From the IMG/VR virus record IMGVR_UViG_3300012983_000002: a DNA stretch of 64,000 nucleotides, one strand, 5' to 3'. The DNA comes from a virus (taxonomy: Duplodnaviria > Heunggongvirae > Uroviricota > Caudoviricetes). Below the pieces are notes generated by a model. That model had not been told where the DNA came from. It searched no databases and was given only the letters and a program-made list of their open reading frames with translations. Position numbers and translations under genes: made by a program. This document shows, piece by piece, positions 4,300 through 62,194 of this stretch. How positions within the stretch are numbered: the first letter of the stretch is position 1; each line of letters opens with the position of its first letter.

Positions 4300-5649
4300 T
4301 TATGGGAGGTGACTAGATCTATTAAATATATCGTGGTTATAGTTTGCATACAGCTGTCTGAGCATTTCCTTCTCAACATCACCGGCGCCTACCAGATTAT
4401 CTATACGTGCCATACCATCCGCATTAGCATTAAGATTCCATCTTGCTAATCTACTAGCATCCACAGATCCACCTGGGCCTCCTTTCAGCATACGGTATCC
4501 GTCCGCTAAGGCTTCCTGCATGAGTTTAGGATTGTCCCATGGAATATTAAGACCATTTTTCACACCAACATTCCTTAAACGTTGTGCAAGATCTCCGACT
4601 ACAGCAGCATGCTCTTCTGGAGTCATTTTGTGAAGCGCTGCATGAGAACTCTCATGAGCATTCATATGTGCGTAACCTTTAGTCTTAGGACTGACCATAG
4701 TGACACCAGCTCCAGGAAGATAGCCAGCCTGACCTCCTCGTTCTATTAAATCTACGTAGGCGTCATCCCTTCCAATTACCTTATTAACGAGTCCTCTGAG
4801 CCTAGGATTATTACTAGAACGCAAGCGAGTATACAAAGCATTGGCCCTGGTACCTGGTTCTAATATGTTTTGCCCGTCCAATCTGGATAATGTTGTCTTT
4901 ATAGAGCGTGGCGTTTTTTCGAGTAAACCTTGGGAGTCTATATAAGTAAACGCATCTCCAGGTGCATGCTGTATGTCGTTTGCTGCAACTCTGGTAATCT
5001 TATTGTTCCTGGCAGCTCTCCATGTTCCTCCGTTATCGTATGGGAGAGATCTCATAGCTCCAACCATACGACGCATATAATCCATGCTAGGTAGCTGCTC
5101 GTCTTTTTTACCACCGCGCATGGCTTTAGCTGCAGAAGCTGATCCCGGGTTAGTTGGTCGACTAGGGAATAAGTTAAAATAGTAGTCGTGAACAAGATCT
5201 CCCTCGTTCAAAGGGGTATTCGTAGCACGGTGCATTGCTATAAGATCATCCCTGCTTACGACGTTGTGAGAATCTGTAGCTCTAGCAGGGAAAAGAGATC
5301 TTTTAACATCTCTCCAGTGCGCGCCGTCAAGCTGATAGCTACTGCGCAAATCCTTAGCGTCAGTCGTACCTTTAAGCCAGTTACTGTTCTGGTATCTCCC
5401 TTTAGATCTTATCGTAGGAGCATCTCCAAATACAGATTTAAGTCTGGGCTGTATCAGCGTGGCGTAACCATCCTCATACGCGATGCCTCTCTTTTTCGAG
5501 GCGATATTATCTATCTCACTACGAATGCGATCGTACCTGGCATTTCCGAGTTTCTTTCGTGCGAGATTTTCTGGCAAGGACGCTACAATATAACGCATCC
5601 TTGCAGCCGATACAGCTTGTTTAGTAATACCTACATCACTATCTCTCAT
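4300..5649 (-). CDS. hypothetical protein (449 aa)
   Basis: Long ORF in the same orientation as its neighbours. No motif recognised. Confidence 0.55.
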   Translation of the reverse strand: MRDSDVGITKQAVSAARMRYIVASLPENLARKKLGNARYDRIRSEIDNIASKKRGIAYEDGYATLIQPRLKSVFGDAPTIRSKGRYQNSNWLKGTTDAKDLRSSYQLDGAHWRDVKRSLFPARATDSHNVVSRDDLIAMHRATNTPLNEGDLVHDYYFNLFPSRPTNPGSASAAKAMRGGKKDEQLPSMDYMRRMVGAMRSLPYDNGGTWRAARNNKITRVAANDIQHAPGDAFTYIDSQGLLEKTPRSIKTTLSRLDGQNILEPGTRANALYTRLRSSNNPRLRGLVNKVIGRDDAYVDLIERGGQAGYLPGAGVTMVSPKTKGYAHMNAHESSHAALHKMTPEEHAAVVGDLAQRLRNVGVKNGLNIPWDNPKLMQEALADGYRMLKGGPGGSVDASRLARWNLNANADGMARIDNLVGAGDVEKEMLRQLYANYNHDIFNRSSHLP

Positions 5650-5740
5650 AAATGAAAGTATACAGTAATTACCACTTATACAAAAGAGAGGATACGTTTC
5701 CCAACGTACCCTCTCTGTAATAAATTATGAGATTAAACCT

Positions 5741-5929
5741 TTACTTCTTATACGGATCTACTGGGATGATGGTCCAGCTAGCATTGATGGAGCCATCGGC
5801 AGACTGAGAATAAGAAGCTGTACACCCTGTAAGAGTAGCAAGAAGAGCTACTGTAACAGAAGCTGACACTGCAAAGCTTATAGTAAACCTTAGTACTCCT
5901 GCAAGTATTTTCTTTGTTTTATTTGTCAT
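5741..5929 (-). CDS. small putative lipoprotein
   Basis: N-terminal hydrophobic signal followed by a lipobox-like LTGC (…ALLATLTGCTASYS…). Confidence 0.4.
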   Translation of the reverse strand: MTNKTKKILAGVLRFTISFAVSASVTVALLATLTGCTASYSQSADGSINASWTIIPVDPYKK

Positions 5930-5934
5930 AATGT

Positions 5935-6543
5935 TTATGCGTGATGAGAGTTGATATAATCTTCCAGAGCAATATTTACTTCTTCCTCAGTCTTCGCTGC
6001 ATCGATAGCAGCCCAACATACCTGCTTTCCTTGCTGTAAGGCAGTCTCGTGAGCTGCCAAATCTGCGTAAATTTTCTGAATATCCTCAGTAGATAGAGGA
6101 GCTACCGTCTGACCGTCGGCAAATTCATAATAAGTCAAGCCTCCCATCAACAGACCAGCAAGAAGATAAATATTATCCTTCTCAGTGTGCATCACAGCAT
6201 ATCCTTCCCTATAGCTAGGAACATCTACTCTGTGTGTATGCTTGCGAACGTAATCGAGATGTGCCTGTGCTTTATCCTTAGCGGCCTGGCGACACTCCGA
6301 TGTTACATAACCGTAATACGCCTCCGGATCTGCCAGAATAGCATCTTTATCGAGCACGTCTGTCTTCTCCCAGAAAATATACTGGTCGCCTTCCCAACTC
6401 TTGCGAGGAGTTTCTTCTTCGCCAGATGGCTCTTCCTGGTGCTCGGTAACGTTAATAGTAATAGTAACCTGAGTACTACCATTAAAATCGTAGAATACTA
6501 CAGGTGCCGGCTCTTCTGAAAAATTAGCGTGCTGCTTGCGCAT
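5935..6543 (-). CDS. hypothetical protein (202 aa), immediately downstream of the DGR RT with a 20-bp overlap
   Basis: ORF overlaps the RT stop, suggesting translational coupling. Its acidic N-terminus makes it unlikely to be Avd. Confidence 0.5.
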   Translation of the reverse strand: MRKQHANFSEEPAPVVFYDFNGSTQVTITINVTEHQEEPSGEEETPRKSWEGDQYIFWEKTDVLDKDAILADPEAYYGYVTSECRQAAKDKAQAHLDYVRKHTHRVDVPSYREGYAVMHTEKDNIYLLAGLLMGGLTYYEFADGQTVAPLSTEDIQKIYADLAAHETALQQGKQVCWAAIDAAKTEEEVNIALEDYINSHHA

Positions 6544-7669
6544 AATGAGAAATAATGTTTGATGCTCTACTGAACGATTTTATAGCATTAAGAGCTCTTT
6601 GTACATACCTTGTCGCAGCCGAATCCATGTATCCTTTATACGACATAAGTCTAAGGGACTGTCTTAACGACATAACGCCTCCCTTAACTTTAATAAGTAG
6701 CTTTCTTGCCTTTCTGAATATATGCTTGCGCAGCGTAACCAATCCTCCTGGAGATACTCGGAAACCCATCATGTCTACTGGGTGTCGTTTAGTAATTCTA
6801 TGAATCTGCCACGAAGGTTTTATCATTAGGTGTAATACAGAGGCCGCTCTCTTGGTAATAGCTTTTATCGCTTTGCACAGACTCCTTTTATTTGTACCTA
6901 TAAATAGCATGTCGTCCATGTAGAACAGAGTACGCTTTACCTGGTTATTACGCTTACAGGATCTCTTAGTAACACACTCCTCCTTTGCGAAGTGATAAAG
7001 ATCAGACAAATATATGTTAGCTAACGTCTGGCTAAGAAAACTACCGATAGCCATGCCCCTTGGTACAGAATACACTAGCTCACGTATAAGCCACATTAAG
7101 CGATCATTGCATATTCTTTTCTCCAACCAAGCCATCATGCAATCCCTATCCACAGAACCATAAAAGTCCTTGATATCTAATTTAGTAGCGTATAGCTTAT
7201 GATCCGAACTCAGCCACTTCTTTATAAACTTGATACCATAATGAGCACCGCGTCCTTTGATACTACTGACTTGAGTTACACCTATGCGCTTACATACCTC
7301 ATCAAGAGCCAGAACAGCTATATGATCAAACATAAGCTGTCTTATACCTAATACAGATATCTTTCTAGACTTGCCGCTTCCTGGATCTATTCTTATTACT
7401 TGCTTGGGTGTGGGTAGGCCTAAATCCTCACCAGACAATAAAGTATCCTGTAGATCCTTGGCTATAGAAAAACAAGCATCAAAGTACTGCTCGCCTCTAT
7501 GCTTAAGAATGCGAGCTACTTCTTTTCGCGAACAATTTGGTAGATATTTCTTAAACAGATGTACCGTATCGTGTCGCCGCCTTTTTCTGCTAGGCGCAAA
7601 ACACTGAAGCACTGCTCTGAGAATAAGGTCCCCATCGCAAATATCTACATTCTTACACTTACGTTTCAT
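6524..7669 (-). CDS. reverse transcriptase, diversity-generating retroelement type
   Basis: Catalytic motif FYMDDMLFIG (YxDD). The upstream motif GMAIGSFLSQTLANIYL carries the IGxxxSQ signature typical of DGR RTs rather than the QGxxxSP of group II intron RTs. It is adjacent to the TR and two VR-bearing genes. Confidence 0.85.
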   Translation of the reverse strand: MKRKCKNVDICDGDLILRAVLQCFAPSRKRRRHDTVHLFKKYLPNCSRKEVARILKHRGEQYFDACFSIAKDLQDTLLSGEDLGLPTPKQVIRIDPGSGKSRKISVLGIRQLMFDHIAVLALDEVCKRIGVTQVSSIKGRGAHYGIKFIKKWLSSDHKLYATKLDIKDFYGSVDRDCMMAWLEKRICNDRLMWLIRELVYSVPRGMAIGSFLSQTLANIYLSDLYHFAKEECVTKRSCKRNNQVKRTLFYMDDMLFIGTNKRSLCKAIKAITKRAASVLHLMIKPSWQIHRITKRHPVDMMGFRVSPGGLVTLRKHIFRKARKLLIKVKGGVMSLRQSLRLMSYKGYMDSAATRYVQRALNAIKSFSRASNIISHYAQAAR

Positions 7670-7860
7670 TCGTTAGTGATTTTGACCTTCAGAGCTTTTC
7701 GCCTGAGCTACTAACCTCTGTGTCCATTGGTCATTTGTATTTTGACTCCGTTCGGAGGGAGGCTGTGACTTTTAATGTTACAGGCGGAAAGAATAAATCT
7801 TTCCCGCGATATGACTCCATAAATTACAGGACAAGTCCTGCAAAACTATTTGCAAAATTG
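7670..7860 (-). ncRNA. DGR spacer RNA region between TR and RT start, with predicted hairpins
   Basis: Non-coding 190 bp between the TR and the RT ATG. It contains short stems (ctccgttcggag; caggacaagtcctg). By analogy with the Bordetella DGR, the TR-adjacent RNA primes cDNA synthesis. Confidence 0.45.
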
Positions 7861-7959
7861 CGGGCGCAGATGTTCCAGTTCGCGTTCCCAAGACCGTTGT
7901 TGAGGTTCAAGTAAGCAGATCCAGCGTTCGTACCGTTGTTCAGGTTACCGCCAGAAAGG
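7861..7959 (-). repeat. DGR template repeat (TR), about 99 bp
   Basis: About 99 bp homologous to the 3' ends of ORFs 8079..10292 and 10403..12640. Every mismatch falls on a plus-strand T (template-strand A). The TR read in the target frame contains about 10 AAC codons. Confidence 0.85.
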
Positions 7960-8026
7960 AACAATCGCTTCGAAATCATATCCCTAAAATTTTCTATATC
8001 CTATTAGTAACTACAAGTGGATCCTC

Positions 8027-8085
8027 TCGAGGGGTAGGAGCTCTGCCCCTCCCCCTCGAACTCCCCCACCCCGATGGACTAATCA
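8027..8085 (-). promoter_or_regulatory. IMH-like GC-rich element plus hairpin downstream of VR2
   Basis: This 59-bp flank is identical to 10351..10409. The minus-strand reading gtgattagtccatcggggtgggggagttcgagggggaggggcagagctcctacccctcgag contains a 9-bp stem ctcgagggg/cccctcgag. It is absent at the TR flank. Confidence 0.6.
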
Positions 8086-10292
8086 CGGGCGCAGAAGTAC
8101 CAGTACGCGCTCCCAAGACCGCCGTTGAGGTGCAAGGAAGCAGATCCAGCGTGCGGACCGTTGACCAGGGAACCGCCAGAAAGGAACTCCTTAGCCTCAT
8201 TAGTACTCACGTAGAACTTATCACCATGTCCCTCCTGATCAGACGAGCTACCTACCAGTACAGGATAAGCGACACCATTCCAGGAGATAGTCTCGTTATA
8301 GATGAATTTATCTGAAACAGTACCATCCACTACTCCAGAAGGCACATATCCAGCCGTTATCCATGGGGACAATGTATTAGATGTACTGCTCAGTCTAGCT
8401 TTACCATCAGGACATGTAAGGATTACCATCTGACTTGTTGCTGGAGTGATAGAGACTCCATCAATAGTAAGAGCAGTAGATCCATCTCCCTTTACAGCTA
8501 CAGTATCTCCTGCGCAAATGTAACCGCCAGGCATGTACTCTGTACCTTGTACGCGATATGGATGTTTTTGATTTGTAAGAGATGTTACAGACCCGTCGTG
8601 CATTCCAAGTACTCCTGTTCCGCTTACACCACCATTCATCGTCTCTCCACCAAGAGAGAATCCTTGACACGCATATGCACAATACTGAACATCACTACCC
8701 AGGGCGTCCTGATCTGCCTTAGTAGTAACAACAACGAAAGGTTTGACAGGGAATGCTGTATTGTTGGCAGGATCAATTCGCAAGCACAGCTGTCCTGAAT
8801 CACTCTTGATCTCTGCAGTAGGATCAGTCAGATCATACTTAGCAATTTCCGCAATACGCACATACTGTGTAGCATTAGTAGTCGTATATCCGAATGCCAT
8901 AGCATTTCCGATAAGTGCAGCGCTGCCAGCAGAATTATAGCCATTCAAGCAGACTGTACATCCCACCTCGAATGCTCCCTGACTGGAGATAGGGAACAGA
9001 TAACTAGGGGTAGTAATAGCCGCAGCAGCCTTCACAGCGTTTTGGTTATTCTGCGACATACCAGTATGGATCTGCTGTGAGTTCTTATTAGCATTCTTAA
9101 CAATATCAAACAGCATACCGAATGCATTCACGCATGCCTTACCTGGATTAGCAGCGGCCTGATTTCCGAATGCGATAATGTTGTTATAGCTAAGGTTGTT
9201 TCTGAGAGGAGCGTTGAGCTTAGATACCAGACCCTGCGTACTTGTCGAATCATAACCTCCACAGAAGGCAGAATGACACCAATAAGGACGAAGTACAAAT
9301 GAATTGGTAGAAGCATCCCACACCTGACAGGAAGGCCACACATGGAAGTCTTCCTCTGTAAGACCGTGAGCCTCTAATTCGGCGATAGTATCAGCATCCA
9401 GTCCCTCGTATGTAATACCATCAGATACGACAGTACTCCAGGGGGAGTCTGAGATTACCCAGAGCTGTGAGATAGGGGATCCGTTCTCTGTTCCGTCTGC
9501 AGTCAGCCATGTACCGTCTGCTTGCTGGAACTTCTCCGTCTTTACAGCAAACCAGAAGATAGGACCGAATGCAGCAATGTTCTGAGTCTGATCGAATGCT
9601 GGGATATTAAACGTACCAGAAGGTGTAGCAACAGTACCTCCTGTTACACCTCGAATAGCTGTAATGTGCTTTACACCGTACTCGTCCTTAATGTAGTTTC
9701 CGTACTGCCAGTAGAACACCCATTCCTTACCAACATAATCATCTACGCCAAGCGCAGTATCGGTAGAGCAGGCGTGATTAAGATTTTCATTAGCCCACAG
9801 CTTAGCTGTCATATTATTGGCAAAGAAATTACCAGCAGCTGAAATAGTAGGCGCTACATTAGCTACAGCTCCGCTCGCATCCTTGTAAGCGTACGGTACA
9901 CGAGAACCATATACACGTCTAGGAGCTGCTGCCAGAGGGTAATTAGGCTGAGCTACTGCCTTATAATATTCATTGAAATAATTAACTGGGATAGCTGTAC
10001 TAGGAACGGCTGTAGTAGGATAGGTCGGAGCGTCTGCTGCCACATCAGCAAAAATCTGAGCAATCTGATTAAATTTTTCATGCTCAGCTGCTGTAAGATG
10101 TACGGTAGTATTCTGCTCGTGTTCCTGCAGTGAGGTACTCTGATCACCGATGGCCTTAATAACATCAGCCCCGTTTACAGACAGCCGTCCGGCCACTGTT
10201 GCGTCTCCTGTTACAGAGATATTCTTAACAGAGAGTACTGTAGTGTTTACAGTATCTGCTGTCACAACTCCTCGAGAAATTTTTACACTCAT
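8079..10292 (-). CDS. DGR target protein 2 (737 aa), putative receptor-binding/tail fibre protein with a C-terminal variable domain
   Basis: Paralogue of 10403..12640, with shared motifs YWCHSA, LFDI(V/I)K(N/T)ANKN, RVQGTEYM and a C-terminal ...CARD. The VR occupies the last ~35 codons, and a C-type-lectin-like variable region is expected. Confidence 0.8.
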   Translation of the reverse strand: MSVKISRGVVTADTVNTTVLSVKNISVTGDATVAGRLSVNGADVIKAIGDQSTSLQEHEQNTTVHLTAAEHEKFNQIAQIFADVAADAPTYPTTAVPSTAIPVNYFNEYYKAVAQPNYPLAAAPRRVYGSRVPYAYKDASGAVANVAPTISAAGNFFANNMTAKLWANENLNHACSTDTALGVDDYVGKEWVFYWQYGNYIKDEYGVKHITAIRGVTGGTVATPSGTFNIPAFDQTQNIAAFGPIFWFAVKTEKFQQADGTWLTADGTENGSPISQLWVISDSPWSTVVSDGITYEGLDADTIAELEAHGLTEEDFHVWPSCQVWDASTNSFVLRPYWCHSAFCGGYDSTSTQGLVSKLNAPLRNNLSYNNIIAFGNQAAANPGKACVNAFGMLFDIVKNANKNSQQIHTGMSQNNQNAVKAAAAITTPSYLFPISSQGAFEVGCTVCLNGYNSAGSAALIGNAMAFGYTTTNATQYVRIAEIAKYDLTDPTAEIKSDSGQLCLRIDPANNTAFPVKPFVVVTTKADQDALGSDVQYCAYACQGFSLGGETMNGGVSGTGVLGMHDGSVTSLTNQKHPYRVQGTEYMPGGYICAGDTVAVKGDGSTALTIDGVSITPATSQMVILTCPDGKARLSSTSNTLSPWITAGYVPSGVVDGTVSDKFIYNETISWNGVAYPVLVGSSSDQEGHGDKFYVSTNEAKEFLSGGSLVNGPHAGSASLHLNGGLGSAYWYFCARD
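8086..8184 (-). repeat. DGR variable repeat VR2 (3' end of target gene 2)
   Basis: 14 mismatches versus the TR, all at TR adenines. Confidence 0.85.
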
Positions 10293-10350
10293 GATATGTA
10301 TTTCGTTATATTTTGCGTTAATAAATTTGTCAATATAAGATTAGAGGCCC

Positions 10351-10409
10351 TCGAGGGGTAGGAGCTCTGCCCCTCCCCCTCGAACTCCCCCACCCCGATG
10401 GACTAATCA
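10351..10409 (-). promoter_or_regulatory. IMH-like GC-rich element plus hairpin downstream of VR1
   Basis: Identical to 8027..8085. Confidence 0.6.
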
Positions 10410-12640
10410 CGGGCGCAGATGCGCCAGGACGCGTACCCAAGACCGCCGTTGAGGCCCAAGCAAGCAGATCCAGCGTACGTACCGAAGTTCAGGCTACCGC
10501 CAGAAAGGTATTCATACACTCCCTTATTATTACTGCGATAGTAATAATCACCGAAACTATTACTAGAACTGGCACCCTGGCCTATGCTGAGTGTTACGAA
10601 TCCACCAGACTCTGACAGTGTTCCTTGGGCAACATAACCCTCAGTTATAGGACACATGGTCTGCACCTTATATCCAGCATTAATCCAATTAGACACAGTG
10701 CCAGCTCCATTATTAATACGTTTAACATGAGCAGGACAATTAAGGATCATGTAACGTTCTACTCCAGGCTCATTAGTATAGTATTCTCCATTAATCTCTA
10801 TGGGTGTTGTACCGTCATCTCTTATAGCAATCATGTCGGACGATACAGTCCAGGCTCCAACCATATATTCTGTTCCCTGTACTCTGAACGGATGTCTACC
10901 ATTAGTGAGATTAGTACATGCTCCGTCTGTTTTTCCAAGTACAGCATCAGTCTCCCCAGATAGTGCAAATCCCTGTTGAACATAACAGCATGCCCTTACT
11001 CCGGCAGCTTGTAACTCAGCACACGCCTCTTCGGTAGTTCTTACGAGGAATGGTTCAACTGTACCCGGATCTAATACGATACACGGAGCTGTTACTGTAC
11101 CGGCATCTACCGTATCGAACGTACGTAATTCCACAGCACTTATTCTCCCTATCTGTGTCTTTGCTGATCTGCCATTAGATACTCTTAAGATACCTCTATA
11201 CTTAGCCTTAGTAGAATCAACATACATAACACTCTCCAGGTATACTGTGCAGTGTTTCTCGAATTGCTTCTTGGCCTGATCTGCTGTGCCTATCGGGACT
11301 ATATAATCGGCAGAAGCAGTGTTATATGTAGGTACAGCCTTGTATGTTAAATTATCTGTAACGTTCTGATCGTTACTGTAGTTATTGCTCATACCAGTGT
11401 GATAGGCCTGTGTATTCTTATTAGCAGTCTTAATAATATCAAACAGAATCGGGAATCCTGTAATACATGCTGCAGTTCCTCCTCGATTAATAGAAGGGTA
11501 TACTCCACCTACAGCAGCACCATATGCAGCATTAAGGTGATTGTAGGAAAGATTGCTTCTACGAAGAGGAAGATTAGGTTTAGACACAATAGGTCCTGTT
11601 CCTGCCTCATTCTCGGCTCCTGCAAAATAAGCAGAATGGCACCAATACGGGCGTTCTATATACGTGTCGAGGGTAGAGTCATAAACAAGACACTCGGGCC
11701 ATATACGTAAATCTGAGGCCGTTATACCGTGAGAATAAAGTTCCAGGCGTTTCTCATCACTCAACTTATCCCACGGAGAATCAGATATACCCCATAGCTG
11801 AGTAATTGGTTGTCCTGTTTCTGTACCGTCATCTGTAGTCCATCTCTGAACTCCATTAGAGTCAGTGAACTTGTATAGCTCTGTTTTAACGAAGTACCAG
11901 AACTTAGGTCCGAAAGCACATACATTCTTATCTCTACTGAATACTCTACCCGTCTTAGGAAGATCTTTAACAGCAGTAATATGCTTATTACCGTCCTCGT
12001 CAGTAATGTAATTAGCATGTCCCCACCAGAACGCCCATTGCTTTCCTACGTAATCATCTACTCCAGGATTGGTATCTGTAGCGTATGTATGATTGAGGCC
12101 GGCATTATCCATCAGCTTGGCTTCCAGCTTAGCCTTATCAAACTTGGCTATTGGTGTATTAGCTGGAATGCTTGCTATGGAAGACATCAGATAAGTGGAG
12201 TCGAAATTAGCAGCTCCATCTACTTTCTGAGGATAAGGAACTCTGGATATGTAAACCTTACCTGGAGCCTCGTATACTCCCTTCTCTGCTCGATTAGCGA
12301 AGAAGTCATTAAAGAATTGCCAGGAATAAGAACCTGCTGGTAGACGAGGAGGTACAGTGGCTGTAGGAGTAAGCTTACCTGTATTATCAAAAGAGAACCG
12401 GGAAGTTATATTGTTAAAGCTTGTTCTCTCTTGACCAGTGAGATGAACTACTGAATCTGACTTGTGTGACTTCGTACCATCAGCCAATTCTTCGATATGT
12501 TCTCCTACCTTATATTCACCGTCGGTAGGTGTTCCTATGATTAGTTCTCCTTTTACACCCATATTACCTTCTAAGTCCAACGAAGGTCGAGTAAGAGAGT
12601 CTGATAGAATAATTGTTTCTGCATTTAGATCTGCTGCCAT
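10403..12640 (-). CDS. DGR target protein 1 (745 aa), putative receptor-binding/tail fibre protein
   Basis: Paralogue of 8079..10292 with a diverged N-terminus. It ends ...GGLGYASWRICARD, with the VR at its 3' end. Confidence 0.8.
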   Translation of the reverse strand: MAADLNAETIILSDSLTRPSLDLEGNMGVKGELIIGTPTDGEYKVGEHIEELADGTKSHKSDSVVHLTGQERTSFNNITSRFSFDNTGKLTPTATVPPRLPAGSYSWQFFNDFFANRAEKGVYEAPGKVYISRVPYPQKVDGAANFDSTYLMSSIASIPANTPIAKFDKAKLEAKLMDNAGLNHTYATDTNPGVDDYVGKQWAFWWGHANYITDEDGNKHITAVKDLPKTGRVFSRDKNVCAFGPKFWYFVKTELYKFTDSNGVQRWTTDDGTETGQPITQLWGISDSPWDKLSDEKRLELYSHGITASDLRIWPECLVYDSTLDTYIERPYWCHSAYFAGAENEAGTGPIVSKPNLPLRRSNLSYNHLNAAYGAAVGGVYPSINRGGTAACITGFPILFDIIKTANKNTQAYHTGMSNNYSNDQNVTDNLTYKAVPTYNTASADYIVPIGTADQAKKQFEKHCTVYLESVMYVDSTKAKYRGILRVSNGRSAKTQIGRISAVELRTFDTVDAGTVTAPCIVLDPGTVEPFLVRTTEEACAELQAAGVRACCYVQQGFALSGETDAVLGKTDGACTNLTNGRHPFRVQGTEYMVGAWTVSSDMIAIRDDGTTPIEINGEYYTNEPGVERYMILNCPAHVKRINNGAGTVSNWINAGYKVQTMCPITEGYVAQGTLSESGGFVTLSIGQGASSSNSFGDYYYRSNNKGVYEYLSGGSLNFGTYAGSACLGLNGGLGYASWRICARD
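10410..10508 (-). repeat. DGR variable repeat VR1 (3' end of target gene 1)
   Basis: 14 mismatches versus the TR, all at TR adenines, plus one boundary mismatch. Confidence 0.85.
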
Positions 12641-12762
12641 ATTTTCTATTATAGTTAATTATCTCTACGAGGATAGCACGGAGATGTGGTAGATAAAAGA
12701 AAGACACCCTCTCCTGTACTTGACGGAGAGGGTGTGTAGATTATATTGATGAAGATTAGTAA

Positions 12763-13272
12763 TTATCCGTAGATGAAATCAGGGCCTGTTGTTGCCGAGT
12801 TGTAGAACGGCTTTTTACTCACGGTGTCGAACATACAGGGCTTGCCATTCGGGTCTAGGCATGGAACGAAATTGTGAACCACCTCGGTGCCTTGCGATAT
12901 AGATACTTCATAAATGCGGCATCCTCCATTATTGGCCATCGCACCCGAATTATTAAATGCAAATAAATATGCACTATAGCCGATTGATTGTGGTATATCA
13001 CCCAGAGTCGCTGATATTATGTTTCTGTCACTTTGGGCTACAAATATAACCGATCTGCTATTCAGCCAGTTTAGCTCACTTCTGTATACGGAACCCCACT
13101 CACCTTCTGAAAGTGGGAACTTAAACCAGTCATCCCAGCCGTAGCCTATATCCAAAAGTGTCGGATTCGGCGGATAATACCTCGGCCTACATGCCATCCA
13201 CCTTAAATCCAACTCGACGTTTTTCGCAGCGCAAACATCATAATCAGCGGATGTTGTTGCTTGGGCAACCAC
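12763..13272 (-). CDS. hypothetical protein (169 aa), fibre-associated?
   Basis: ORF directly upstream (minus sense) of the DGR targets. Confidence 0.45.
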   Translation of the reverse strand: MVAQATTSADYDVCAAKNVELDLRWMACRPRYYPPNPTLLDIGYGWDDWFKFPLSEGEWGSVYRSELNWLNSRSVIFVAQSDRNIISATLGDIPQSIGYSAYLFAFNNSGAMANNGGCRIYEVSISQGTEVVHNFVPCLDPNGKPCMFDTVSKKPFYNSATTGPDFIYG

Positions 13273-13395
13273 GTATGTGCCGCTTTCGTTGTCGGGTACA
13301 AAGTGCGTGTCAATATACTGCGTACTGTGCTCTGCAGATACTTCACCCGTTTGTACCCGACAGGCAGCACCTCCCCAGCACCCATCGGGCTTATT

Positions 13396-24733: not shown

Positions 24734-25627
24734 TTAACCTATGTACACGATAATACCGTCACATATAGCCTTACCGATCCTGTCAATATTAGTAGCCATC
24801 CAGTATAGATTATCCAGATTATCGTAGAAACCTACTTCGATAAGGGTTGCAGGCATATCAGCCTTAGCATTGCGAAGCACACCCACTGTCGACGTGTGAA
24901 TGTGTTCTGCACGATTATCAGGTCCTTTAAGCGCTAACAATTTGTTAACAATAGTCTGACCTAAATCCTTGCCCTTACTTCTTCCAGGATAATATAGCGC
25001 TACTGGTCCTCTGGCTTTGCATGCCAAATCTTCCCAGCCTGAAGCTCCTGCTGCATTGTTATGAATGGATACAAACACTCTAGGATCACAAGCATTGGCT
25101 CTTGTGTACACCTGACGAATTTCTGCATTATTGGACAAAGAAGGATCGTCATACAGTACTACTTTCTTGCCCTCAGATTCCAAATGCTTCTTAGTAGCTT
25201 CTGCAATTTTTACATTGAGAATGTGCTCAACACTATCGGATGTAGTCGAGGTAAACCCAAGCGCATCTGCTATCTCCTTACACTTTCCCTTAGACCAATC
25301 AACTCCCTTGAACTGTCTTGGATGCTCTCTACTGTAATCAGACGTGTGTCCCGGATCAAGGAATACGTCTATTCTGGTTGTTTTTGGCTTGGGGTTTTTT
25401 ATACGAAGCTTTTCTAGAATAGCGGTGAGAGTTCTACTGCCTATTATCCCGTCAGCTGTGGTGCCGACGGTTTCCTGGATACTGACATTATTAGGTTGGC
25501 ATCCTAGCTCAGAGGCTACGGCCGATCTTGTCTTAGGTCCCCAGAGTCCGTCAGCTTCTACTCCCACCATTCGTTGTATCTCACTGATCTTATCAGAATT
25601 AGTACTCATATAGATATTATAGACCAA
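24734..25627 (-). CDS. endolysin: N-terminal peptidoglycan-binding domain fused to an N-acetylmuramoyl-L-alanine amidase (Amidase_3-like)
   Basis: PG_binding_1-like GVEADGLWGPKTRSAVASEL. Amidase motifs DPGHTSDY and FVSIHNNAAG. Confidence 0.75.
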   Translation of the reverse strand: MVYNIYMSTNSDKISEIQRMVGVEADGLWGPKTRSAVASELGCQPNNVSIQETVGTTADGIIGSRTLTAILEKLRIKNPKPKTTRIDVFLDPGHTSDYSREHPRQFKGVDWSKGKCKEIADALGFTSTTSDSVEHILNVKIAEATKKHLESEGKKVVLYDDPSLSNNAEIRQVYTRANACDPRVFVSIHNNAAGASGWEDLACKARGPVALYYPGRSKGKDLGQTIVNKLLALKGPDNRAEHIHTSTVGVLRNAKADMPATLIEVGFYDNLDNLYWMATNIDRIGKAICDGIIVYIG

Positions 25628-34849: not shown

Positions 34850-34920
34850 TACCCTCGGACGGTAACGATCCGCCTCTCTCAGTGTGTAAAACTGATTTGC
34901 TACCTTTACAACACAAGGGC
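34850..34920 (-). tRNA. candidate tRNA-Val(TAC) with a non-canonical T-loop
   Basis: Hand-folded cloverleaf: acceptor GCCCTTG/CGAGGGT, anticodon stem TCAGT/ACTGA with loop TTTACAC, but T-loop ATCGTTA instead of TTCGAAT. Intergenic. Needs tRNAscan confirmation. Confidence 0.4.
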
Positions 34921-34995
34921 TACTCTTACCCAAGTTGCCATCGGTTCAGGATTGGTTACCTGATTGTATAGTTACCGACGGACTTGGATCATTAA

Positions 34996-35070
34996 TTGCG
35001 GAGGAGGGATTCGAACCCACGACCTCCAGGTTATGAGCCTGGCTAGCTACCTGACTGCTAACACCCCGCG
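34996..35070 (-). tRNA. tRNA-Met(CAT), initiator-like
   Basis: Resembles bacterial tRNA-fMet (CGCGGGGTG...CTCATAA...GGTTCGAATCC...CCGCAA) with a C1:A72 mismatch. Confidence 0.7.
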
Positions 35071-35121
35071 ATTGCTAATTAAGAATATAATAAGCTTTGG
35101 GTGTAGAGTCAACAATAAAAA

Positions 35122-35361
35122 TTAATTTTTTATAGATACATCAACAATAACATCACCTTCATCCACAAGCTGTAATAATTTAGCCTGTTCAATACCGACC
35201 AGCTTAGCTACAAATGGTGTCATGTTCCATCCATAGCAAGTACTGATCTCACCGGTAGAAGACTTAGTGTAAGCTCCTAATTGCATAGTATCTCCCTGGA
35301 CTACGAGCTCAATTGAGAAAATCCCATCGCCTTTTTCTTTTGATTTAAGTGTAATTTTCAT
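35122..35361 (-). CDS. small hypothetical protein
   Basis: 79-aa ORF. Confidence 0.45.
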   Translation of the reverse strand: MKITLKSKEKGDGIFSIELVVQGDTMQLGAYTKSSTGEISTCYGWNMTPFVAKLVGIEQAKLLQLVDEGDVIVDVSIKN

Positions 35362-35362
35362 G

Positions 35363-35956
35363 TTAACCTAAATTATATTTTTCTACAATTTTAGTTGGTA
35401 CATCTTCAGGCCACCTATCCAACATATACTTAAGCTGATCCTCTGCAGGTTCTCCGAATCTATCGTAGCGTAAACAATTCTCAGGACCACAAGCAGCGAC
35501 AAGCATAGCTTGATTAAAGAAGTACTCGTCGCATACGGATTCCATATAACTTACCGACGTATACATCTCATCGCGCTCCTTACTAAGACGTTCAAACTCC
35601 TTCAGATAGGCTATCCTATCTGTAGGCATACAAAGAATATGATAGACCCTATTACTTCTAATAAGACCATGCATGGAGTGTAAGAACTTGCTGGCGTTCT
35701 TTACTACAGGAACATCGGATGCAGCAGAATACGCGTAATTAGACATAATGTATCTATCTACGAGTACACCGCCATACCGCAACGCGTTATCTGCCTCTGC
35801 AAACTGAGCATACATAGCTTCAGGATCCTTAATGTATGTCAGATGCATATACTGAAGCTCTAACGCTTTACATAACTTCTTAGCCAGGGTAGTCTTTCCT
35901 GATCCGTCCGGGCCTTCCAATACTATTGCTGGTTTTTTATCTCTTGCCATAAACAA
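35363..35956 (-). CDS. tmk: thymidylate (dNMP) kinase
   Basis: P-loop LEGPDGSGKTT at the N-terminus. Size and layout fit dTMP kinase. Confidence 0.65.
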   Translation of the reverse strand: MFMARDKKPAIVLEGPDGSGKTTLAKKLCKALELQYMHLTYIKDPEAMYAQFAEADNALRYGGVLVDRYIMSNYAYSAASDVPVVKNASKFLHSMHGLIRSNRVYHILCMPTDRIAYLKEFERLSKERDEMYTSVSYMESVCDEYFFNQAMLVAACGPENCLRYDRFGEPAEDQLKYMLDRWPEDVPTKIVEKYNLG

Positions 35957-35984
35957 AAATAGCGACCTGTTATGGTCGCTAGAA

Positions 35985-36056
35985 CATCCCCAAGCGGAAT
36001 CGAACCGCTGTCGCAGGAATGAAAATCCTGTGTCCTAACCGCTAGACGATGGGGAC
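35985..36056 (-). tRNA. tRNA-Glu(TTC)
   Basis: GTCCCCATCGTCTAGCGGTTAGGACACAGGATTTTCATTCCTG...GGTTCGATTCC. Close to canonical bacterial tRNA-Glu. Confidence 0.75.
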
Positions 36057-36061
36057 ATTAA

Positions 36062-36133
36062 CGAACCATATCGGAATCGAACCGATGTATCCGCAGGGAC
36101 AGTGCGGTGTACTAACCACTGTACTAATGGTCC
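36062..36133 (-). tRNA. tRNA-Asp(GTC)
   Basis: Acceptor GGACCAT/ATGGTTC, D-stem GTAC/GTAC, anticodon loop CTGTCCC, T-arm ATCGG-TTCGATT-CCGAT. Confidence 0.75.
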
Positions 36134-36143
36134 TTTTATATCA

Positions 36144-36214
36144 AGCGGATAACGGGAGTCGAACCCGTCTAGTAAGCTTGGAAGGCTTCTGCATTACCGA
36201 TATGCTATATCCGC
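36144..36214 (-). tRNA. tRNA-Gly(TCC)
   Basis: Acceptor GCGGATA/TATCCGC, anticodon loop CTTCCAA, T-arm ACGGG-TTCGACT-CCCGT. Confidence 0.7.
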
Positions 36215-36263
36215 GCAATAACATTACTATAAAATATAAAACTATAAATACAATAAAATAAAT

Positions 36264-37013
36264 TTAAATTTCATGTATAAACTTATACGCAGCACTTATC
36301 GCCCATTTTGGATCTGAACAAACACTCTTCCAGGGAAGTCTTAATACCCTCCACCCAGAGACTTCGATGTGCTTATCTTTACGCTTATCCCTGTCCATAT
36401 ATTCTTGAAACCTATAATGCTGATCGCCATCTATCTCTATGCATTTCTTTCTGTGCTCCCATGCAAAGTCTAAAGAATAAATACCAAGAGGATATTCGCG
36501 AACATAACACTTATCATCAAACTCATTTTCTATCACCCTCATAAACCATGTCTCAGGCCAGGACGGGGAGTTATTGTGTCTGGAGCTTCCGATATTATGA
36601 GCCCTACCCTCGGCGTGAGCTCTTTTCATGCTCTCTGATATTTTAAATTTTGTCTCCTCGGACAGTTTACAACCAGTCCTTTTCTTTATGCATCCATCAG
36701 CATAACGCATCTTATAAGTAGCCGCCGATTTAGCAACAGATACACTTGTAGACTTAGTCAATCCTTTATTCCATATGCCTGCTGTATTACGGTGCTCTTT
36801 TCTTACATGTTCGTATAAAAGTTTGCGCGTCCTGAAACACTCCCCGCAATGCACGCATTTCCATCTACCAGGCTCAGCCGCTGGTGGGGTTTTAAAATTA
36901 CACTTATGGTTGCGAGTTTTGCTTGCCGCGTACTTAGTAGCACAAGACTTAGAACAAAACCTGCCAGAACCGAAATCCCCACAGTGCTCTTTTTCGCAAA
37001 ACTCACAAACCAT
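36264..37013 (-). CDS. zinc-finger plus DUF559/Vsr-like PD-(D/E)xK endonuclease (homing-endonuclease-like), adjacent to the tRNA cluster
   Basis: N-terminal Cys clusters (CEFCEKEHC...CSKSC; C2H2-like CVHCGECF...HVRKEH). C-terminal YSLDFAWEHRKKCIEIDGDQH, matching the DUF559 D...E(I/V)DG pattern. Confidence 0.6.
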   Translation of the reverse strand: MVCEFCEKEHCGDFGSGRFCSKSCATKYAASKTRNHKCNFKTPPAAEPGRWKCVHCGECFRTRKLLYEHVRKEHRNTAGIWNKGLTKSTSVSVAKSAATYKMRYADGCIKKRTGCKLSEETKFKISESMKRAHAEGRAHNIGSSRHNNSPSWPETWFMRVIENEFDDKCYVREYPLGIYSLDFAWEHRKKCIEIDGDQHYRFQEYMDRDKRKDKHIEVSGWRVLRLPWKSVCSDPKWAISAAYKFIHEI

Positions 37014-37026
37014 AATAACTATCTAC

Positions 37027-37097
37027 CTCCCCCGCCAGGTAACGATCCTGGCCTAACGGATTAACAGTCCGCTGTGCATCCTCTACACCTCAGGGGA
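37027..37097 (-). tRNA. candidate tRNA-Asn(GTT) with a non-canonical T-loop
   Basis: Acceptor TCCCCTG/CGGGGGA, anticodon stem GCGGA/TCCGT with loop CTGTTAA, T-stem CCAGG/CCTGG with loop ATCGTTA. Intergenic. Needs confirmation. Confidence 0.4.
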
Positions 37098-37151
37098 ATA
37101 TCAACTAATGCTCTTAAAGTATTACAGAAACATTTTTAAATGTAAACACTA

Positions 37152-44526: not shown

Positions 44527-46457
<1,931 letters not shown>

Positions 46458-60355: not shown

Positions 60356-62194
60356 TTACTGTTGACCTGCCATCTTTCTTCCCTGAGAAGCTCCCTGCTG
60401 TCGTATTTCCTCCATATGACGTTTAACAACAGCGTATAGAGTCGGGTTAGACGCTTCGATTTGCATCATAGCTTTTCTACGTTCACCATTATCCTGTATC
60501 TGCAGAAGTCTCATGGCCTCTTGCTCACCTTGCTGCTCAATGTCCAGAGGAGTAACACCTCCCTGACCACCGCCACCTCCAGCCGGAGCAGCACCTTCAG
60601 CAGGCATACCTCCTCCAGGTCCTCCGGTAGCTTGCATCATAGCTTCCACTACTTGGTTGGCGGAGCCTAGTGTCATTTCGCGTTCGAAATCTTCGCTGGC
60701 TTTTTGTCTAGCTTTTTCGATTTCGAAATCTTCTTGCGATCGCCTCATTACCTCTTGTACGGGATTGTCGATATTAAAGGCTCTGTATGCTGTAGCGCGA
60801 GATACCTCACCTCCAGCCGCAAGCTGTAACCATACGTGTCTCTTCTCCATATCGTCAGCGACAGAAGGAAGCATAAGCTTAATACTTACAGGCTCTTTTT
60901 CAAGATAACCTAAGATATTTTTTACAGCCCAGCGTACTGCGTTATTGAAGTTTCTTTGTAAATGTACGAATGTGGATTCAAACAGGCGTATCGCTGTTGG
61001 AATTTGAGCAGTCTGTAATGACATGTGCCATAGTTCTGCTGGGTAGCCCATACCGTCTAATAGCTCGTCCTGATGGAATTTCATCAACTCTACAGGAGCA
61101 AGTGCTTTACCGTTAGCACCAAGTTCCTGGTATGTTACAGGGAATGGTACTGTCTGAATAGATGTGAGATCTTTACGGCGAGCAGCAATAAGTTGCTTCA
61201 TAGCTGCATGCCACGCGCCCAGGTTGGTAGACATAGCAACATCATTTCCGTGTTGACTGCCAACTGGAGTAGGGCTGAGCAATCTGAAAGGAAGCATGTA
61301 ATCCATACCTACAGCTTCATTAATACAACGTAAAACTTGAAGCTGGTGAATGTTATTATAATTCAGAAGAATATTAGGAATACCCCAGCCGTTGTATGAC
61401 AACCCTGATATGAATGGATTCTTGAAGTGATAAATGTTACCTTGGTTGAAGGCGAAATTACAATTATCACGAATAGCTTGGAGCATGTCCATCGGAGTAT
61501 CATTAATTTGATGAATATGCGATCCCTCCCTAACAGCTGCTGCAAAGAATTCTTCGAATCGATATATGTACTCGCATTGTCCAGAAATTAGGTTCATGTT
61601 GATCATCATACGTAATGGGTTCAGTAGACGAACTTTGATACGATTTTGATCAAATGACTTTCTATCAATGAATTCCATATCCACTCTACTCTGCTTGTCG
61701 GACTCCATATGCAGAGTTCTGGGATCAGGAACATTGTATGTCATGTTGGAGAGATTAAATTTAATATCTCTACCAAAAGCTTCTACAGCTATCTCTTTGT
61801 AACCCCCACCTCGACGATCCACCAGGAATCTATTAAAAGGATAATAGATCCACATGAAGCTGTTGCCATAAATCATCTGCTCCATTCCTGCCTGCTGTAG
61901 AATATCCAGCATGCGAATAGAGTTTGTCAGATAATCTTTTAAGTTGTTTTGCTCCTCTGGATCTCCTGCCTTTCCTACAAACTCGAAATCAGTAATAAAG
62001 TGTGAAACTGTGCGCCTAGTAGCCTGAGTGTAAGAAGGATTCTGAATTGCCAGGAAAAGGCAGAATTCCAGAGCGGTATAAAAATCTTTGGGAATATAAA
62101 GATTAGAGCTCATCACGAACGGGTCGTGGAACTCTTTTGTCCCGTGAAAAAAAGACTTTAAGTTAGGATCTCCTGAAGTGATAGCTGAAGACAT
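60356..62194 (-). CDS. large hypothetical structural protein (612 aa), possible portal
   Basis: Size and Gly-rich C-terminal tail (GGPGGGMPAEGAAPAGGGGGQGG). No definitive motif. Confidence 0.35.
   Translation of the reverse strand: MSSAITSGDPNLKSFFHGTKEFHDPFVMSSNLYIPKDFYTALEFCLFLAIQNPSYTQATRRTVSHFITDFEFVGKAGDPEEQNNLKDYLTNSIRMLDILQQAGMEQMIYGNSFMWIYYPFNRFLVDRRGGGYKEIAVEAFGRDIKFNLSNMTYNVPDPRTLHMESDKQSRVDMEFIDRKSFDQNRIKVRLLNPLRMMINMNLISGQCEYIYRFEEFFAAAVREGSHIHQINDTPMDMLQAIRDNCNFAFNQGNIYHFKNPFISGLSYNGWGIPNILLNYNNIHQLQVLRCINEAVGMDYMLPFRLLSPTPVGSQHGNDVAMSTNLGAWHAAMKQLIAARRKDLTSIQTVPFPVTYQELGANGKALAPVELMKFHQDELLDGMGYPAELWHMSLQTAQIPTAIRLFESTFVHLQRNFNNAVRWAVKNILGYLEKEPVSIKLMLPSVADDMEKRHVWLQLAAGGEVSRATAYRAFNIDNPVQEVMRRSQEDFEIEKARQKASEDFEREMTLGSANQVVEAMMQATGGPGGGMPAEGAAPAGGGGGQGGVTPLDIEQQGEQEAMRLLQIQDNGERRKAMMQIEASNPTLYAVVKRHMEEIRQQGASQGRKMAGQQ

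Follow-up and report, generated by a model that had tools for sequence, protein, structure and literature searches.

An almost certainly functional, two-target diversity-generating retroelement without a detectable Avd gene in a large uncultivated phage

The prototype diversity-generating retroelement (DGR), that of the Bordetella phage BPP-1, has the order mtd-avd-TR-brt, where TR is the template repeat, and passes sequence in an adenine-specific manner from an AAC-rich TR to a variable repeat (VR) that encodes the C-terminal end of a receptor-binding phage protein of the C-type-lectin fold. In the Bordetella element, priming uses an adenosine of the spacer between TR and reverse transcriptase (RT) gene, and this spacer base-pairs with the TR at its 3′ end; in the RT, bRT, the residues I181, G182, and Q187 lie within the IGxxxSQ segment and touch both the template base and the dNTP that comes in. 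The accessory protein Avd is essential in the Bordetella system; it is present in about 74% of DGRs, so it is not universal. Among 372 DGRs, 29% were found to be without an accessory gene (‘Architecture A1’, target-TR-RT; Wu et al. 2018, NAR 46:11, PMC5758913). The same study describes an avd-less RT lineage (‘Lineage 3’) and puts cassettes with two targets at 13%, indels opposite AAC at about 7%, substitutions of bases other than A at 23%, and inverted GC repeats at 34%. Here we analyzed 64,000 nucleotides of DNA from a virus of the class Caudoviricetes (IMG/VR record IMGVR_UViG_3300012983_000002), a stretch that we call the window, and conclude that it comes from an uncultivated phage of roughly 196 kb and almost certainly carries a functional DGR on its minus strand.

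The locus resembles that of BPP-1 in its adenine-specific flow from TR to VR and its AAC-rich TR, in VRs that sit at the C-termini of likely receptor-binding proteins, one of which is modeled with a C-type-lectin fold, in a GC-rich repeat end with a GC hairpin behind the VRs only, and in a non-coding TR-RT spacer in the range of roughly 140-190 nt. It differs from BPP-1 in having two targets instead of one, in that no avd gene was found in the window, and in that its presumed site for the initiation of mutagenic homing (IMH) and the corresponding site at the TR (IMH*) share a GC-rich 10-mer only. The order of the components, target(s)-TR-RT without an avd, HRDC, MSL, or CH1 gene, is that of Architecture A1, and the features catalogued by Wu et al. 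all occur in this element or in its close relatives. The element is an ordinary example of a well-described system in which every feature has a precedent, because Avd-free, two-target, AAC-indel, non-A, and GC-repeat cases have all been recorded (Wu et al. 2018). What sets it apart from that collection is the host phage, which is roughly 196 kb in size, uncultivated, and without a close phage relative in GenBank.

The TR and the two VRs were compared by ungapped alignment. The genes lie on the minus strand, so a T on the plus strand of the TR is an A in the coding strand. The original prediction, made from the DNA letters, had counted 14 mismatches between the TR and each VR and had placed all of them at such positions, and this description proved exact to the base: VR2 and VR1 each differ from the TR at 14 positions, and 28 of the 28 mismatches lie at a plus-strand T of the TR, with none at G, C, or A, in a 99-nt repeat composed of G29 C25 T24 A21 (plus strand). 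The chance of this, which the prediction had proposed to calculate for the T positions, is given by an exact hypergeometric P of 5.2e-11 for 14 of 14 mismatches on 24 T sites in each pair and of 2.7e-21 for both pairs jointly. One VR or both carry a change at 20 of the 24 TR adenines; the probability that all 20 variable sites fall within the 24 is 2.5e-17. In the coding sense, the changes comprise five A>T, five A>C, and four A>G in VR2 and seven A>G, five A>T, and two A>C in VR1. The VRs differ from each other at 17 of these variable sites, in keeping with the claim that they were diversified independently.

Read in the frame of the targets, the TR is LSGGNLNNGTNAGSAYLNLNNGLGNANWNICAR, in which 10 of the 33 codons are AAC, the number that had been estimated. 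Its adenines occupy codon position 1 in 12 cases, position 2 in 11, and position 3 in one, and the changes are confined to positions 1 and 2; as is typical of DGRs, whose VRs usually end a protein with a C-type-lectin or Ig fold, the VRs lie inside the coding C-termini of the targets, with all but one of the adenines at these two codon positions. The boundary mismatch predicted for VR1 is real as well. Just past the 5′ boundary of VR1, the TR (7960-7964) reads GGAAC and VR1 reads GGTAT, and the homology of VR1 to the TR stops about 3 nt before that of VR2, which reaches 7964. The 3′ boundary of the repeats (coding sense) is exact, at 7861, 8086, and 10410. A search of the window for a further repeat copy found none beyond TR, VR1, and VR2. 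The TR is outside any long open reading frame (ORF). A 51-aa ORF at 7824-7979 (minus strand), annotated by gene callers in public assemblies, is the TR read in the VR frame (MISKRLFLSGGNLNNGTNAGSAYLNLNNGLGNANWNICARNF...) and is probably not a real protein. The components of the locus are listed in Table 1.

Table 1 Components of the DGR locus, by position in the window
Feature	Position	Strand	Remarks
DGR reverse transcriptase, 381 aa	6524-7669	-	190 nt 3′ of TR; ORF intact
Spacer from TR to RT start, 190 nt, non-coding	7670-7860	-	presumed 3′ part of DGR RNA; local hairpins
TR, template repeat	7861-7959	-	24 adenines, 10 AAC codons; VR2 homology continues to 7964
Element 3′ of VR2	8026-8085	-	presumed IMH tail, GC-rich hairpin 8027-8059
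VR2	8086-8184	-	3′ end of target gene 2; homology with TR runs on to 8189
Target gene 2, tail-fibre-like variable protein, 737 aa	8079-10292	-	C-terminal C-type-lectin fold (model)
Element 3′ of VR1	10350-10409	-	last two codons and stop, presumed IMH tail, GC-rich hairpin 10350-10384
VR1	10410-10508	-	3′ end of target gene 1
Target gene 1, tail-fibre-like variable protein, 745 aa	10403-12640	-	ends ...CARD*; PHROG 17147 and 5302 ‘tail protein’

Ten related contigs (L001-L010, from JGI, ENA, and Logan assemblies) were found by an exact search with the VR flanks and by look-up of the RT protein. Such contigs, which come from other samples, show no differences over 3-7 kb outside the VRs, and the TR is byte-identical in 10 of the 10. 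Over 7.1 kb, L001 and the window are 99.8% identical, and the differences of L001, 10 substitutions and one 3-nt deletion, are all in VR2, at TR-adenine positions; the resulting second VR2 haplotype is also present in L002, L004, and L007. L002 has six further differences in the covered part of VR1, all at TR adenines, and the near-identical contigs hold three VR1 haplotypes. When five nucleotide haplotypes were pooled, 56 of 58 substitutions were at a template A. The VR1 of the window and that of L003 share their first 66 nt without a difference and diverge at positions 67-90 alone, in the 3′ third, a restriction that fits 3′-anchored partial conversion with a variable upstream resolution point. 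Several contigs stop inside VR1, as an assembler would at a hypervariable repeat.

The same picture emerged at the protein level. The 90% protein clusters that hold the two targets have 22 and 27 members, and among the full-length members listed, the VR peptides are all different (12 of 12 for VR2 and 14 of 14 for VR1). The cluster consensus is undefined at TR-adenine codons only, and the entropy per column averages 0.93 and 1.01 over the last 33 columns as opposed to 0.06 and 0.13 elsewhere. VRs that vary among otherwise identical genomes, next to a TR that stays constant, suggest that diversification is ongoing.

The rival that survives best holds that the DGR is dead, a fossil whose VR/TR differences record past activity, with diversification now over. 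We regard this as very improbable. It can point to the failure to detect Avd and to a relative (L011) that has both target paralogues and neither TR nor RT, so that the cassette can evidently be absent; set against this are an RT ORF that is intact and has its catalytic motifs, the different VRs of genomes that are otherwise identical over 3-7 kb, the unique VRs of 26 of the 26 full-length cluster members listed beside an invariant TR, and the VR1 pair that differs in its 3′ third only, which implies a recent event. A second rival, to which we attach next to no weight, invokes ordinary divergence or gene conversion of three paralogous repeats, with selection on fibre tips and no reverse transcription. 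Tail-fibre tips are indeed often hypervariable by recombination, and the two targets are paralogous, but 28 of 28 mismatches fall on one template base (P about 3e-21), the same bias recurs in the locus of every relative with a detectable repeat pair, and the pattern is directional, the non-coding copy beside the RT always having the A, by which this explanation is effectively refuted. Adenine-targeted editing or damage of VR DNA or reads, for instance by a deaminase, or a repeat assembly artefact is just as implausible: the VR1 of L003 is indeed enriched in changes to G, two of them T>G, and contigs often break at VR1, but A>T, A>C, and A>G occur in similar numbers, which is impossible by deamination, the presence of all three outcomes does not fit A-to-I style editing, and independent assemblies (JGI, ENA, and Logan) yield the same haplotypes, with the rest of each contig identical. 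The TR-to-VR relationship put forward in the original prediction is thus supported by the adenine specificity, the DGR-type RT, the tail-protein-like targets, and the differences restricted to VRs among near-identical genomes.

A few observations weigh against reading the locus as a functional DGR. The VR1 haplotype of L003 and L010 has two T>G changes at non-adenine positions (GGT>GGG and ATC>AGC), and all haplotypes derive from metagenome assemblies, which means that they are consensus sequences and possibly chimeric within a VR. The TR and the VRs diverge almost at once after their shared 10-mer, making the IMH/IMH* pair weakly definable. Finally, neither Avd nor a four-helix bundle was found in 74 window ORFs of 85-185 aa searched against Pfam, NCBIfam, and PHROGs, a scan that covers the 64-kb window, draws on the best 25 of 39 families for NCBIfam so that a very weak Avd match could escape it, and may give a false negative for a protein as poorly conserved as Avd. 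Either the mechanism differs in detail from that of the Bordetella element, or the factor is encoded in the roughly 130 kb of the genome beyond the window.

There is no room for an avd ORF between VR2 and the RT gene. By its gene order, the element most likely belongs to the known accessory-gene-free ‘target-TR-RT’ architecture, because no Avd is detectable. A 202-aa DUF4376 gene that overlaps the RT stop codon was considered as a possible accessory gene and rejected as a phage gene of another kind: its counterpart has the same place in L011, where TR and RT are missing, and it is missing from distant relatives of the RT. Distant relatives also have ORFs of 105-118 aa that overlap the 3′ end of the RT gene; these have no family matches and no counterpart in the window.

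The RT matches the RVT_1 profile with E = 1.4e-10 and PHROG 1423 (‘Reverse transcriptase’) with E = 8e-55. Its best solved relative is 8ub7_A (a 328-aa chain from the entries 8ub7-8ube), which we take to be the bRT of the Bordetella phage. The likeness to bRT is no more than detectable (E = 5.7e-10 over about 210 residues), but the segments IGSFLSQ and YMDD align with IGSLTSQ and YMDD of 8ub7_A, with the pattern I-G-x-x-x-S-Q kept. Judged by this best PDB relative and by these motifs, the enzyme encoded beside the TR is an RT of the DGR clade. Assignments as a group II intron, retron, or defense-associated (DRT) enzyme were rejected on scores well short of the cut-offs (52 bits versus 300, 41 versus 235 for St85, and 28 versus 200 for Drt3a). 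An Rfam scan of the DGR region returned no family, and only tRNAs were found elsewhere.

The two targets are paralogues with 38% identity. A search of the target 2 sequence against the PDB gave no match; the likeness came from comparison of folds alone, in which the model of target 2 shows a predicted C-type-lectin fold resembling those of known DGR variable proteins. One of these, TaqVP, the DGR variable protein of Thermus aquaticus (PDB 5vf4), has 15% sequence identity to target 2. TaqVP is a cellular protein of 381 aa, whereas target 2 is a phage tail protein of 737 aa with a large N-terminal part. About 750 nt (12641-13395) that precede target gene 1 have no gene call in a public assembly (L003 1274-2030), and the sole ORF in that interval is a GTG-start frame of 169 aa (12763-13272) without family matches.

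Some VR alleles stand out in other respects. In the VR2 allele of L001, L002, L004, and L007, an in-frame 3-nt deletion (at the equivalent of window positions 8170-8172) removes an AAC-derived codon, turning GGT AAC into GGC, and this deletion allele was seen in both JGI and ENA assemblies. Another cluster member has a one-residue insertion in its VR (the proteins P0071 and P0078 are the indel cases). In the VR1 allele of L003 (4160-4260) and L010 (1485-1585), 9 of the 12 adenine changes are to G. L010, a contig of 3,795 nt, has a VR1-type gene end joined straight to the TR, with target gene 2 missing; the joint reflects either a genuine loss of 2.3 kb, through recombination of the 164-nt VR-plus-flank repeats, or a collapse in assembly.

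The 60-nt elements behind VR1 and VR2 match each other at 59 of 60 positions, and no such element lies behind the TR. Each contains a hairpin with an imperfect GC stem of 15 bp and a 3-nt loop, whose DNA fold has a z of -2.8 at 8027-8059 and of -3.4 at 10350-10384. When the hairpins were checked as terminators, no T-run was seen and no terminator was called; a search upstream of the TR for a sigma-70-like promoter found none. In the loci of 12 relatives examined, GC hairpins with other stem sequences follow the VR after 15-30 nt. The TR and the VRs share their GC-rich 10-mer end, TCTGCGCCCG, and then part ways. The VR flanks thereby match the arrangement of the Bordetella element, an IMH followed by a GC inverted repeat, and by analogy with it they may serve the same function here.

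Within the spacer, a UAGUA (plus-strand TACTA, 7709-7713) stands out in a comparison with nine divergent relatives whose RTs are 32-52% identical. TAGTA is invariant among them, a CGAAA-like stretch after it is loosely conserved, and a small hairpin upstream of it (GCGGGAAAG...CUUUCCGC in the window) shows compensatory changes. The consensus structure of the spacer in these relatives has 8 pairs at -0.4 kcal/mol, too weak for a claim of structure, and when the TR and spacer were folded together as RNA and compared with shuffled sequences, no extra stability was found (z = -0.9). In this Avd-less lineage, the RT may bind the DGR RNA through the conserved part of the spacer, or that part may serve in priming.

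These features are best explained by mutagenic retrohoming, with a mechanism modeled on that of the Bordetella element. The TR would be transcribed together with the 190-nt spacer downstream of it, and the adjacent RT would copy the TR part of this RNA intermediate into cDNA, primed in cis by the spacer, faithfully at G, C, and U and with any base opposite A. The cDNA would then take the place of the 99-nt VR homologous to it, at the 3′ end of one or the other of the paralogous tail-fibre-like genes. Homing would start at the shared GC-rich end TCTGCGCCCG, and the 60-nt flank with its GC hairpin, present behind the VRs only, would direct it to the VRs and away from the TR. Each event could re-randomize about 12 residues on the ligand-binding face of the C-type-lectin domain without creating stop codons, because the adenines are in codon positions 1 and 2, mostly in AAC codons, and would presumably alter the receptor specificity of the phage.

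Relatives of the element occur on other phage contigs. Homologues of the targets lie on contigs of 164-202 kb, and the RT is also present on a contig of 196,555 bp. One locus, L012, whose targets are 46% and 42% identical to those of the window, likewise has two targets in this arrangement, and 39 of its 40 mismatches are at A. Among a further 23 IMG/VR loci, with RTs 32-50% identical, all those in which a repeat pair was detected have a single target, a TR within about 70-115 nt, and the RT after 160-185 nt, with strongly A-biased mismatches; in one of the 23, L020, the search for a repeat pair gave none. In L011 (a contig of 28,413 nt; target 64% identical), both paralogues are present, with 724 and 746 aa and the ending ...CARD, and TR and RT are missing. 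Its VR-like C-termini remain, and no cassette sits between target 2 and a DUF4376-like gene; TR and RT are therefore acquired or lost together, as one cassette, at this site.

In L012, a resolvase/MerR-HTH gene and a TnpB-like (Cas12f1-like TNB) fragment have been inserted between the two targets, at 4317-5967. In L014 (3219-3632) and in L015 and L016 (3179-3658), the target homologues have 950 aa and contain an internal tandem array with repeats of about 63-84 nt that are 83-93% identical; the array has no adenine bias and is unrelated to the DGR repeats.

In GenBank, a megablast of positions 5900-12700 against phages gave no match, and protein-level matches to phages had at most 37% identity to the RT and at most 28% to the target. 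The closest RTs of GenBank phages, at 30-37% identity, are those of the unannotated human faecal phages MT835469, MT835477, and MT835485. Next to the RT of MT835469 lies a sequence homologous to the C-terminus of the target, with 28% identity; at the DNA level, none of the three is similar to this element. An exact-pattern scan of 185,579 reference genomes with the VR flank found nothing and so offers no evidence of a prophage or a host. Host inference from genes was uninformative, GroEL being about 58% identical to that of many unrelated taxa and the portal having only remote phage relatives. The source is a large (roughly 196 kb), deeply divergent uncultivated phage, because the phage relatives of its portal-like and GroEL genes are remote only and homologues of its targets lie on contigs of 164-202 kb.

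Elsewhere in the window, a full-length GroEL gene at 44527-46149 (minus strand) matches PHROG 5725 with E = 3.5e-171, and the 612-aa product of the ORF 60356-62194 is remotely homologous to portal proteins, with 22-24% identity to those of Salmonella and Vibrio phages of about 180-187 kb. Pooled scans of the window ORFs of 85-185 aa gave matches to GroES, a thioredoxin-like protein, and a phosphoesterase. An endolysin is encoded at 24734-25627, and six tRNA genes lie at 34850-37098 (minus strand): Val-TAC, Met-CAT, Glu-TTC, Asp-GTC, Gly-TCC, and Asn-GTT.

A tentative idea, which we find possible but on balance doubtful, is that the RT lineage to which this element belongs (24 loci with RT identities of 32-52%, in the order target-TR-RT wherever a repeat pair can be detected) runs without any Avd-like partner, with the spacer RNA, through its UAGUA, CGAAA-like stretch, and covarying hairpin, positioning the template and priming the cDNA. 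If true, it would be a compact two-component system of RT and RNA for adenine mutagenesis in large gut or environmental phages. Avd-less DGRs are already documented, so this would be an incremental advance; with no Avd seen in it and with conserved spacer motifs, the lineage is a reasonable candidate in which to study mutagenic retrohoming that does not depend on Avd, or from which to build a smaller scaffold for engineering. A deep-branching group of uncultivated phages of roughly 190-200 kb thereby gains a clean two-target DGR that is evidently active, and in phages with almost no annotated proteins, the locus marks both genes of about 740 aa as likely receptor-binding proteins.

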